From: Candidatus Nomurabacteria bacterium
GTDB lineage: Bacteria > Patescibacteriota > Saccharimonadia > Saccharimonadales > HK-STAS-PATE-42
Assembly (NCBI GenBank): GCA_023898665.1
Contig: CP060233.1
Coordinates: 289,833-353,832, forward strand
DNA: 64,000 nt
Reading direction: 5' to 3'
A model generated the notes under the pieces. That model was not told where the DNA came from. It saw only the letters and a list, made by a program, of their open reading frames with translations, and searched no databases. Of the stretch, positions 21,461 through 22,293 are shown piece by piece (within the stretch, counting starts at the first letter, position 1; every line of letters begins with the position of its first letter). The position numbers and the translations under genes are program-made.

Positions 21461-21511
21461 TGTGGGTAAGTGTGGGTAGTATATTGAAGTAAGTGGGTAG
21501 ATGTGGGTAAG
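21461..21511 (+). promoter_or_regulatory. Four helically phased direct repeats GTGGGTA (offsets 0, 10, 31, 41), candidate MraZ operator
   Basis: tgtGGGTAagtgtGGGTAg ... agtGGGTAgatgtGGGTAa lies about 90 bp upstream of the mraZ-like ORF. E. coli MraZ is known to bind TGGGN direct repeats spaced 10 bp apart. Confidence 0.55.
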
Positions 21512-21592
21512 CCGCAATTTAAGCACAAAGCTTACGTTGGCTTGCCAAATTAAAAACAAAAAAACTCCCACGAAGCTTAAAACTTCAAAAAA

Positions 21593-21967
21593 ATGGCCAA
21601 AGTGGATTACTTCTCCCGAAAGCTCGACGATAAGAATCGTTTAACTTTACCTACGGAGGTAAGGGATGAGTTTGCGGAAGGGATTGTAGTTACACGAGGC
21701 TTTGGTACCTATCTGCATGCTTACCCTAAAGAGGTTTGGCAGCAAGATGTGGAATCACGACTGAAGGGCGATATCCTGGATGAACGAATTGCAGATCTTA
21801 ATGTTAGATTTCGGATGGGAAAAAAAGAAGTGGTACCAGACAATAAGCAGGGCAGAGTCACGTTAGACGCTGACCTACTTGATTTTGCTGAGATTCAGCA
21901 AGATATTGTGGCGGTTCGAGTCGGCCAGTATTGGCGGCTCGGATCCCCCAAGAACATTAACAGCTAG
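21593..21967 (+). CDS. mraZ: Transcriptional regulator MraZ-like
   Basis: Two MraZ-type half-domains with LDDKNRLTLP and DNKQGRVTLD DxxxR-like motifs. It is not adjacent to rsmH. Confidence 0.65.
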   Translation: MAKVDYFSRKLDDKNRLTLPTEVRDEFAEGIVVTRGFGTYLHAYPKEVWQQDVESRLKGDILDERIADLNVRFRMGKKEVVPDNKQGRVTLDADLLDFAEIQQDIVAVRVGQYWRLGSPKNINS

Positions 21968-22293
21968 GATAAACAAATCGAATATTGCTACCGAGCAATC
22001 AGCGGTGGGGTCTGAAGGAAACCACCTAAAAAGCCCTTAGTACATCGGTGAGTTTAAATCTGGTGAGGCTAGATTTTGAGTCGAACTGTCTATCTCGGAC
22101 TGCTCGCAAAGATTCAAAGTTTTATAGGCCGCACTCTAGTTTTTAAACTTACTCACAAAAAATCTCTCACTTCACATAAGTCTCTCTATTAGATAGTCGA
22201 ATCTATCTTGAACAAAAACAAAAATCGCAAAAACAAAAAGCTGATTGTTCGATACTGATATTTGATTTGTTCTAATTGTTAAAAGTCATTAAT

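Follow-up and report, generated by a model that had tools for sequence, protein, structure and literature searches.

The DNA considered here is a stretch of 64,000 nucleotides (the window) from a Candidatus Nomurabacteria bacterium (GenBank assembly GCA_023898665.1, contig CP060233.1, forward-strand positions 289,833 to 353,832), and all window positions given below are counted from its first letter. Its mraZ gene (21593-21967, encoding 124 aa) is preceded by a promoter region with four phased GTGGGTA repeats and is followed by 326 non-coding nucleotides (21968-22293) between the mraZ stop codon and an intrinsic terminator; rsmH lies 13.7 kb away (35641-36522), and all of these features are on the + strand. 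We find that the non-coding stretch is, on the evidence of folding and covariation, a conserved structured RNA of the Saccharibacteria, and that it has stayed under purifying selection in a small clade in which rsmH is no longer adjacent. Together with its promoter it probably constitutes an autoregulated unit whose RNA carries signals like those of an rRNA leader.

The comparisons draw on 80 Saccharibacteria genome loci together with three later loci from the window's own clade; motifs near mraZ were counted over 81 loci, the position of rsmH is informative in 76, and the promoter repeats were aligned over 79, anchored on the second repeat. The closest relative is L001, with 96% MraZ identity; for L203 the value is 85% and for L201/L202 76%, and these genomes and the window form the clade referred to below as the orphan clade. 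More than 1,000 proteins of about 123 aa, from Saccharibacteria/Patescibacteria assemblies, are 65-91% identical to the window MraZ.

The spacer downstream of mraZ is a conserved structured RNA

A reading of the window from its sequence alone (the sequence-only reading) held that mraZ normally stands directly upstream of rsmH, and treated the tail of the orphan gene as a long 3' untranslated region (UTR) that could hold a regulatory RNA. The gene order is borne out, since rsmH follows mraZ in 75 of the 80 loci, four others end at a contig edge, and L001 alone lacks rsmH at that place (75 of 76 informative relatives). Direct abutting is not seen in the Saccharibacteria: an untranslated spacer is always present, and the gap ranges from 234 to 691 nt (median about 365) and is never short. 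The window tail aligns with these spacers, and by this alignment it is the ancestral mraZ-rsmH intercistronic spacer. The tail is a structured or regulatory RNA, a kind that the sequence-only reading had thought the 326 nt could hold, but it is an intercistronic element by descent and not a UTR in origin.

Folding and covariation identify the spacer as a conserved structured RNA. The window tail folds at -101.5 kcal/mol, with a z-score of -5.9 against shuffled sequence, and the copy in L017 reaches -7.2. Its minimum-free-energy fold is closed by a long helix, P1, whose 5' strand (21972-22003) and 3' strand (22240-22271) are 32-nt arms, 81% complementary and 236 nt apart, that form 28 bp in the window. 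The family alignment contains 23 P1 pairs, in which 98.3% of the cells pair and 13 of the 23 change on both sides; none of 500 shuffles matches this pairing, and slid controls fall far lower. The frequent G-U pairs on the P1 3' strand point to an RNA helix transcribed from the + strand.

Inside P1 lies a hairpin, P2 (22004-22026), with the stem GGTGG (22004-22008)/CCACC (22022-22026) and with 25, 9 and 6 double changes in three of its pairs. Its loop AAGG (22015-22018) is the 5' strand of a predicted pseudoknot, the 3' strand of which is the CCTT (22035-22038) that follows an A-rich linker, TAAAAAG (linker and CCTT together, 22027-22038). The same H-type arrangement, in which the P2 loop pairs with the stretch after a linker of five to seven A residues, recurs across the family: the core pairs are formed in 66, 68 and 47 of 73 sequences, two of them have 12 and 8 double changes, and at least ten complementary combinations are found (for example AGGG/CCCT, AAGG/CCTT, GAGA/TCTC, TAGC/GCTA, AGTA/TACT and CGAA/TTCG). 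When cognate and non-cognate strands were permuted, none of 2000 permutations equaled the observed value; a test on fixed alignment columns is only partial, the pairing register being off by one base between subfamilies in the MAFFT alignment.

The pseudoknot is followed in the window by a hairpin of about 110 nt (22047-22156, in the minimum-free-energy fold) that is specific to the orphan clade, being 86% identical in L001 and missing from the other 36 aligned relatives. Beyond it is a C/U-rich core (22157-22186), predicted to be single-stranded, which ends in a 14-mer, CACATAAGTCTCTC (22173-22186), conserved across the class; the core consensus, ACACCUCCCAAAACUCCACCUCACACAUAAGUCUCUCAA, is nearly invariant and predicted to be unpaired, and of 44 nt of the core 19 are C and one is G. 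The 13-mer CACATAAGTCTCT is found exactly once in 78 of the 80 loci, always just after mraZ, and is absent from 589 kb of TM7-type rRNA contigs without mraZ. A further hairpin, P3 (22191-22208), varies across the family in both sequence and length (27-109 nt), and the equivalent segment is stable in 75 of 75 loci (median z-score -4.0). The interior closes with an A-rich tract, CAAAAACAAAAATCGCAAAAACAAAAAG (22213-22240), with the consensus CAAAAACAAAAAC..AAAAACAAAAAG ahead of the P1 3' strand and with a word, AAAAACAAAAA, that is nearly invariant among 38 aligned spacers.

By these comparisons the element matches no Rfam family. At gathering thresholds the window yields only a tRNA-Glu, elsewhere in the sequence, and six whole relative loci yield nothing; permissive scans (E <= 10) of window positions 21300-22500 and of L017 positions 10340-10700 return chance-level hits only, and ARAGORN finds no tRNA or tmRNA in the mraZ region. 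A literature search, in which subscription journals were thinly covered, found no published description of the element. Two other identities were considered and rejected. A small protein is not indicated, as no frame of the core has a consistent start and 50-64 of the 80 loci lack an open reading frame (ORF) in a given frame. Mimicry of 16S rRNA, with the element as a decoy for RsmH, was suggested by the core sequences CACCUCC and ACACC..CCC..UCACAC, but a local alignment to a TM7-type 16S sequence scores 19, whereas shuffled sequences average 17.5 and reach up to 24.

We note that relatives with long spacers (L027, L031, L032, L039, L044 and L047, and likewise L048, L051, L054, L055, L063 and L067) have an extra conserved hairpin between the mraZ stop codon and P1, with the consensus ...GCGCGATGAGAAACC-loop-GGTGTCTCAT..., possibly an additional module that the element has in certain lineages.

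Displacement of rsmH and constraint on the element

The distance of 13.7 kb between mraZ and rsmH, which the sequence-only reading had given, is confirmed by the positions of both genes. In the window rsmH (TIGR00006, 259 bits) has no MraZ boxes and heads a run of an ftsL-like gene, ftsI, ftsW and murG. The rsmH-ftsI-ftsW-murG run is syntenic in the relatives, as are the upstream neighbors of mraZ, namely recO, a class II tRNA synthetase gene (16662-18020), a DUF1761 gene and a GH1 glycosidase gene. Between the mraZ tail and rsmH stands a block of about 13 kb (22.3-35.6 kb) that contains genes for a trmA-like methyltransferase, a Cas4-like PD-(D/E)XK nuclease, serS, a hibernation-factor-like gene, a TylF-type methyltransferase gene, secA, an M16 peptidase gene, a class I release factor gene (with PCRF and RF-1 domains, here termed prfA) and a 224-aa gene of unknown function. 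The same left junction is present in L001, L203 and L201/L202, which shows the rearrangement to be genuine and of sufficient age to mark out a small clade; by this synteny the orphan state is a derived rearrangement common to the window, L001, L203 and L201/L202.

An intrinsic terminator, CCCGCCAGTGCGGGG followed by a T run (22291-22313), is the only terminator-like site after mraZ, which agrees with the earlier placement of a terminator only at 22294; L001 has a different hairpin and T run at the same position, and no terminator is found between mraZ and rsmH in L017 or L052. At the other end of the block, rsmH has an extended -10 element of its own, TGTTATAAT (35625-35633), 7 nt ahead of the ATG, in intergenic DNA of only 36 nt (within 35605-35643). 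As an aside, this layout suggests a leaderless or near-leaderless rsmH-dcw mRNA in the lineage.

In the orphan clade the element is nonetheless under purifying selection, as judged by sequence identity. In a comparison of the window with L001 the identity of flanking intergenic DNA is 52-76%, whereas P1 reaches 91-94%, P2 with the pseudoknot 98%, the core 100% and the A-rich tract 90%, and P3 carries a compensatory double change (AGATAG/CTATCT against AGATGG/CCATCT). L203 and L201 also retain P1, P2, the pseudoknot, the A-rich tract and a recognizable core. All orphan-clade copies share two derived traits, the large extra hairpin and a diverged 5' half of the core, in which AAAAUCUCUCACUUCACAUA replaces ACACCUCCCAAAACUCCACCUCACACAUA. 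Because these copies represent a single evolutionary event, the divergence of the core cannot be causally tied to the loss of adjacency to rsmH.

A boxA-like motif ahead of the element

The last codons of the window mraZ are overlapped by a boxA-like motif, GAACATTAACAG (21952-21963), the only + strand match in the 64 kb. In its strict form, G[CTA][ATC]C[ACT]TT[AG]ACA[AG], the motif stands 0-30 nt past the mraZ stop codon, or overlaps the last codons in the orphan clade. Of 81 loci, 66 have it between -40 and +80 relative to the mraZ stop, a density of 6.8 per kb compared with 0.015 per kb (about 450-fold). The same strict motif is present in 16S rRNA leaders, which were sampled from 80 metagenome contigs with a TM7-type 16S signature: 22 of the 67 usable leaders contain it, 72-226 nt before the 16S 5' end, at a density of 1.3 per kb against 0.0076 per kb elsewhere on these contigs (about 170-fold). 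The motif downstream of mraZ is similar to boxA, the NusB/NusE site of rRNA leaders. In gamma-proteobacteria the boxA consensus reads GYTCTTTAANA, and its C at position 4 is critical (Baniulyte et al., bioRxiv 10.1101/091223); twelve relatives match this consensus perfectly, as GTTCTTTAACA or GCTCTTTAACA. A different role for the motif, with its TTAACA as the -35 hexamer of an internal promoter, was rejected, a TANNNT sequence following 16-18 nt downstream in only 2 of the 66 mraZ cases and 2 of the 22 leader cases.

Promoter and putative MraZ operator

Four GTGGGTA repeats lie upstream of mraZ on the + strand, at 21462-21468, 21472-21478, 21493-21499 and 21503-21509, each one base to the left of the position first reported and with the offsets 0, 10, 31 and 41 as reported; these offsets keep all sites within about 1 bp of the same helical face. 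The heptamer occurs seven times in the 64 kb, always on the + strand, against 3.7 +/- 1.7 expected, so that its total is unremarkable and only its clustering is not: four of the seven copies are packed into 48 bp, for which the estimated chance is about 1e-7. The window holds no other group of three or more GTGGG, TGGGT or TGGG words per 45 bp of such form, and a scan finds no box cluster upstream of rsmH, so the wider MraZ regulon that the sequence-only reading had proposed to define by such clusters finds no support in the window.

The repeats are interleaved with a predicted sigma-70-like promoter. A -35-like hexamer, TTGTAT (21456-21461), read from the sequence, is immediately followed by box 1, and relatives have cTTGca or cTTGta at an equal distance from that box. 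Box 1 lies at -10 relative to box 2 and reads GTGGG in 46 and GGGGG in 23 of the 79 relatives. Box 2 reads GTGGG in 71 and GTGGT in 8, always as GTGGGTAGTA, and abuts the -10-like hexamer TATATT (21480-21485), which is 18 bp past the -35 and is represented in relatives by TA(C/T)A(C/T)T at the same place. The start of transcription is placed by this spacing near 21492, and box 3 would then lie at about +1; of the 79 relatives, 67 have GTGGG at this place, +21 relative to box 2. The least conserved site is box 4, at +31, which reads GTGGG in 15, GTAGG in 16 and ATGG[AT] in 20 of the 79 and is perfect in the window, L001 and L203. Boxes 1 and 2 thus fill the spacer between the two hexamers, and boxes 3 and 4 begin about 7 nt after the -10.

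The layout of -10, 0, +21 and +31 is conserved across the class, with the -35 and -10 hexamers in constant register with the boxes. Even where about 400 nt have been inserted between promoter and mraZ, as in L201, the boxes remain with the promoter. The proposal that the repeats are operator-like is strengthened by these conserved positions relative to the -35 and -10 in 79 relatives. Because the layout is conserved class-wide, the array is very likely an MraZ auto-operator; and because characterized MraZ sites are promoter repeats of GTG(G/T) or GTGG[A/T]G with a 10-bp period, autorepression is the natural reading of it.

The 5' UTR (21509-21571) has a hairpin, AAGCC...GGCTT (21509-21543, predicted from the sequence only), and an A-rich stretch, AAAAACAAAAAAACTCCCAC (21552-21571). 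A pattern in which an A-run, a pyrimidine and a second A-run lead into C(C)CAC is shared by 64 of 81 loci, where it usually stops 20 nt short of the mraZ ATG. We note that AAAAACAAAAA, the word of the A-rich tract in the downstream element, has one copy in the mraZ 5' UTR (21552-21571) and two in the element (22213-22240), and that the CCAC(U) or CCCAC of the 5' UTR can pair in RNA with box 3 (AGUGG/GUGGG).

About 70 bp upstream of the -35 lies a pair of DnaA-box-like 9-mers on the + strand, TGTGGATAA followed by TTTTACACA (21369-21387). Of the 81 loci, 76 carry the sequence TTWTNCACA in the 260 nt ahead of mraZ, and 50 of these have a perfect TTATCCACA; its density there, 5.0 per kb, represents a 57-fold enrichment over the remaining parts of the loci (0.088 per kb). 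The conservation of DnaA boxes beside the mraZ promoter suggests a DnaA input into mraZ and dcw transcription. In most of L001-L080 a DnaA-box pair is present at about -150 to -220 from the mraZ ATG, and L201 has a perfect inverted pair, TTATCCACATAATGTGGATAA, at its positions 9385-9405.

The MraZ protein

The identity of the gene, which had been left to a profile search, is confirmed by a PF02381 match of 46.3 bits against a cut-off of 23 (E = 4e-12), by the MraZ fold and by the predicted DNA-contact residues. The match to TIGR00242, 45.4 bits, is under the equivalog cut-off of 98.35, and by its sequence the protein belongs to a short, divergent Saccharibacteria subfamily. All significant matches (E <= 1e-4) in a PDB sequence search are MraZ proteins. 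An AlphaFold model (mean predicted local distance difference test score, pLDDT, 84.5; predicted TM-score 0.79) superposes in Foldseek on 1N0E, 9QLG and 9SZ7 with TM-scores of 0.81-0.84 and a root mean square deviation of 1.8-1.9 A, and the best 16 PDB matches are all MraZ; in this model the protein has the MraZ fold, with two tandem SpoVT/AbrB-like halves.

Among 25 aligned homologues 53 positions are invariant, K14, R16 and R88 included. The first DNA-binding motif, D12-D-K14-N-R16, is a canonical DxxxR, and the second, D83-N-K-Q-G-R88 (DNKQGR, or D-x4-R), has one residue more. In structures of Mycoplasma genitalium MraZ with DNA, K13, R15 and R86 read the GTG(G/T) boxes (PMC12957436); K14 and R16 are matched to K13 and R15 by alignment, and R88 to R86 by fold position only.

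A proposed mechanism and its alternatives

We consider it rather probable, from the conserved sequence features taken together, that the unit is an autoregulated mraZ transcript with an rRNA-leader-like RNA module that is loaded with Nus factors and probably processed. By analogy with Mycoplasma, Bacillus and E. coli, an MraZ oligomer would bind the four boxes on one face of the DNA and repress its own transcription. In most Saccharibacteria the same transcription unit continues via the spacer into rsmH-ftsL-ftsI; in the clade of the window, a rearrangement has put about 13 kb of DNA (from the trmA-like gene through prfA and the unknown gene) between spacer and rsmH, the predicted terminator now closes the mraZ unit, and rsmH has gained a putative promoter of its own. 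As RNA polymerase exits mraZ, boxA would load NusB and NusE (the rRNA-type antitermination complex), and this complex might carry transcription across the long untranslated, C-rich and G-poor RNA, guard it against premature termination, and help the distant P1 strands to meet, as in the 16S leader-trailer helix. P1 would be a likely site for double-strand-specific (RNase III-type) processing, freeing or stabilizing the interior RNA, and the interior, with its pseudoknot and invariant core, could serve as a platform for a partner.

Several observations weigh against this account. The boxA-like sequence of the window, GAACATTAACA, agrees with the gamma-proteobacterial consensus in no more than 8 of 11 positions (C4 being kept) and lies inside the mraZ frame, so that it might be conserved for coding reasons. 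BoxA and P1 can be as close as 16 nt or more than 100 nt apart, whereas the enterobacterial boxA-boxC spacing is fixed at 18-19 nt (PMC10250234). The 64-kb window, the only sequence to which this negative applies, contains no nusB, nusE, rho or rnc gene. Antitermination and processing leave the near-invariance of the 40-nt core unexplained, and the 5' half of that core has diverged in every member of the orphan clade, where part of the ancestral function may be lost. At the promoter, the arrays studied to date are contiguous with 10-bp steps, unlike the 2+2 layout with its 21-bp gap, and many relatives have a degenerate box 4. The support is moreover wholly computational.

An extension of this account, which we offer tentatively and think somewhat improbable, is that the obligatory partner of mraZ in the Saccharibacteria would be a stable RNA of about 250 nt rather than rsmH, made like a miniature rRNA by way of a boxA-loaded antitermination complex, a leader-trailer helix and RNase III-type release, and co-expressed under a DnaA-box/MraZ-box promoter, and that MraZ and this RNA would form a trans-acting division or growth module. 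Such a module would explain why both survive intact with the dcw genes 13 kb off. A rival possibility is a trans-acting small RNA (sRNA) freed from the mraZ transcript, with its source in the 3' UTR here and in the intercistronic spacer elsewhere, whose single-stranded C/U-rich core would pair with purine-rich ribosome-binding regions of target mRNAs; the model for this is UpsM of Rhodobacter. Purifying selection persists after the move of rsmH, across the orphan clade down to 76% MraZ identity, and the element therefore does not need rsmH in cis; the core is moreover predicted to be unpaired and is nearly invariant. In a duplex scan of the window core against 60 translation-start regions, however, murG ranks only 13th, rsmH 23rd and the other dcw genes 43rd or lower, the most anti-Shine-Dalgarno-like part of the core (CACCUCC) is lost in the orphan clade, and seed-type sRNAs are not typically 250-330 nt long or closed by a 28-bp helix; we regard this explanation as unlikely. 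Less likely again is a cis-acting conditional terminator or riboswitch-like attenuator that tunes the flow of transcription or translation from mraZ into rsmH-dcw, either as a Rho-loading site countered by boxA or as a ligand-binding pseudoknot, and that would be a relic in the window. In favor of it, 75 of 76 informative loci have the element precisely between the two genes, its C-rich, G-poor interior fits a Rho-loading site, boxA is known to block Rho and, at suhB, to promote it (bioRxiv 10.1101/091223), and the 5' half of the core has diverged in the clade in which rsmH is no longer adjacent. The H-type pseudoknot with its A-rich linker gives a weak match to the long-loop SAM-II riboswitch, RsmH being a user of S-adenosylmethionine (SAM), but this match (RF01726) reaches 17.2 bits in L017 against a threshold of 44 and is not found in the window copy, and the pseudoknot 3' strand, conserved in SAM-II, is freely variable among the relatives here. 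L017 and L052 have neither a terminator hairpin nor a sequestered ribosome-binding site beside rsmH, and an element identity of 90-100% against 52-76% for neutral intergenic DNA (in two orphan genomes) is unlike that of a relic. A housekeeping RNA of 6S-like outline, which would sequester a protein and be matured from the mraZ transcript in the manner of rRNA, has only a slender chance of being correct. The long closing helix, the very large internal bubble (C/U-rich on its 5' strand, A-rich on its 3' strand) and the terminal P3 recall such an RNA, the boxA and leader-trailer-like helix are rRNA-like signals of biogenesis, and sequence conservation exceeds the needs of base pairing; against this, neither 6S (RF00013) nor any other Rfam family is found at E <= 10 in the window or L017, and the unpaired strands are several times longer than the 6S bubble.

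We considered two further alternatives. The GTGGGTA boxes might be promoter architecture or the sites of another factor, their resemblance to MraZ sites being coincidental, and both the conserved unit, GTGGGTA(G), which is longer than the GTG(G/T) core of M. genitalium, and the spacing of 10/21/10 rather than 10/10/10 could be read in this way. The boxes are nonetheless tied to mraZ in every lineage examined, including L201 with its displaced promoter, they share with characterized mraZ promoters the GTGG core, the single helical face and the overlap with -35, -10 and +1, and the predicted MraZ contact residues are invariant, so that coincidence is a very improbable explanation. The 32-nt terminal inverted repeats, 236 nt apart, are those that a miniature inverted-repeat transposable element (MITE) or other selfish insertion could have, but the tail has one copy in the window and one in each of 78 of 80 loci, where its syntenic position does not vary, with no copy in 589 kb of other TM7 DNA, its arms covary with G-U pairs, and its interior is conserved across the class. 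A single-copy, syntenic sequence is not a MITE, and we reject this explanation as having practically no chance of being correct.

Comparison with known systems

MraZ is nearly universal and is usually studied just as the repressor of its own operon. Among the closest comparisons is the mraZ operator of M. genitalium, which has four GTG(G/T) boxes with a 10-bp period, seen by cryo-electron microscopy (9SZ7/9R4J; PMC12957436). Together with the operators of B. subtilis (three GTGG[A/T]G repeats) and E. coli (TGGGN repeats), it shares with the array described here a GTGG core, a 10-bp period on one face of the DNA and an overlap with the mraZ promoter and start, and the proteins share their fold and probably the K/R/R contacts. 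The present system differs in its 2+2 layout, with a 21-bp gap that holds the -10, in its longer unit, GTGGGTA, and in its protein, which has 124 aa against about 150 and a D-x4-R second motif; in the window the operator, moreover, no longer controls rsmH-dcw in cis. This natural uncoupling of mraZ from dcw, with operator and RNA both kept, argues for a role of MraZ, in company with the RNA, beyond cis-control of rsmH-ftsL-ftsI. The DnaA boxes beside the MraZ operator may provide a direct link between replication initiation and division genes, in episymbionts that are barely entering cultivation.

The RNA element resembles the leader of 16S rRNA, in which boxA is followed by the leader strand of a leader-trailer helix that is cut by RNase III (PMC10250234). 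Here too a boxA-like motif, shared with the TM7-type 16S leaders, precedes one strand of a helix, in this case of 23-28 bp, whose partner lies 200-500 nt downstream, and the helix encloses an untranslated structured RNA. The element, however, lies in a division operon and encloses about 200 nt that are not rRNA, its core has no sequence similarity to 16S, the spacing of boxA and helix is variable, and Nus loading and RNase III cleavage are suggested for it by analogy. Boxes of this type are also known in non-rRNA transcripts, as in the suhB 5' UTR of E. coli and Salmonella (bioRxiv 10.1101/091223), which likewise place a boxA-type motif in an untranslated region of an mRNA; those elements stand no more than 50 nt ahead of a start codon and repress the gene that follows, whereas in the Patescibacteria lineage the motif is at a gene's 3' end and precedes a long structured RNA. 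If our account is true, a boxA signal of the rRNA type would clearly be in use beyond rRNA operons and beyond the Proteobacteria.

Other RNAs are associated with dcw genes elsewhere. UpsM, an sRNA of about 200 nt from the dcw 5' leader of the Rhodobacteraceae (alpha-proteobacteria), lies upstream of mraZ, depends on RNase E and Hfq, and acts on the ftsW and mraY mRNAs; like the element it is a long, lineage-specific structured RNA of a dcw unit that can end at a terminator and exist separately, but the Saccharibacteria element lies downstream of mraZ, and no sequence or structure relationship between the two is seen. The mraW RNA motif of the Actinobacteria (RF01746) is likewise a conserved structure between mraZ and mraW/rsmH, but it differs in size, architecture and phylum, and neither the window nor L017 has a match to it at E <= 10. 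Stable RNAs carved out of division-operon transcripts are similarly structured, but lie inside coding sequences, whereas the element is intergenic and has biogenesis-like signals. Neither by covariance model nor by eye does the element match any precedent among dcw RNAs, and it is a well-supported candidate for a new class of structured RNA in the Saccharibacteria, members of the candidate phyla radiation; in genomes that are very small, 300 conserved non-coding bases are costly to retain.

Neighboring genes and other features

The sequence-only reading had remarked that mraZ and its upstream neighbor, an ORF of 214 aa (20711-21355), look GC-richer than their background, and had raised the possibility of foreign origin. 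Both are indeed the GC-richest of the 61 window genes (46.4%, z = 2.75, for mraZ and 45.6%, z = 2.5, for the ORF, against a gene mean of 38.1% with a standard deviation of 3.0). For mraZ a foreign origin is ruled out by class-wide conservation and synteny, by which the gene is vertically inherited, and its high GC content presumably reflects slow evolution of the gene while the genome as a whole drifted to 37% GC. For the 214-aa ORF the suggestion remains plausible: it corresponds to an exact 681-bp insertion or deletion (20675-21355) relative to L001, between the GH1 stop codon and the region upstream of mraZ, has no match in Pfam, NCBIfam, PHROGs or PADLOC, and has no homologue in the equivalent slot of L203 or L201, and by this comparison it is a strain-specific accessory gene or insertion. 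The gap between the GH1 gene and mraZ holds a 121-aa gene in L201 and a TrmB-like gene with a 249-aa gene in L203, all unrelated to the 214-aa ORF, and is therefore an insertion hotspot.

Within the block that separates mraZ from rsmH, the Cas4-like PD-(D/E)XK nuclease (23755-24513; PADLOC Cas4, E = 1e-11) stands beside the trmA-like gene in L001, L201 and L203 as well, with neither a CRISPR array nor other cas genes nearby. An intergenic repeat of about 110-150 nt has four copies in the window (22316-22457, 6945-7116, 6250-6390 and 11318-11464; 72% mean identity), each directly upstream of a gene: the trmA-like gene, an M50 protease gene, frr, and a 781-aa aminoacyl-tRNA synthetase fusion. 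It has the core GATAGGCCCCAGTACTGTTTT...TACCAGGACGAGACTGGGTCTCGATCAAAATTG and ends in a hexamer like TATAAT or TAGAAT near the start codon; it has no Rfam match at gathering thresholds, and could be a shared promoter/leader cassette or a small mobile repeat. The 781-aa ORF (11465-13810) is itself an unusual fusion, in which a class II (Asp/Lys/Asn-type) aminoacyl-tRNA synthetase core with an anticodon-binding OB (oligonucleotide/oligosaccharide-binding) fold is joined to a C-terminal AlaX-like region (tRNA-synt_2c and tRNA_SAD). Among the rRNA contigs, L089 (contig Ga0209542_10000952) has a TM7-type 16S gene that measures about 2.35 kb between the 27F site and its anti-Shine-Dalgarno end, a length that implies large insertions; such insertions are common in the rRNA genes of the candidate phyla radiation.

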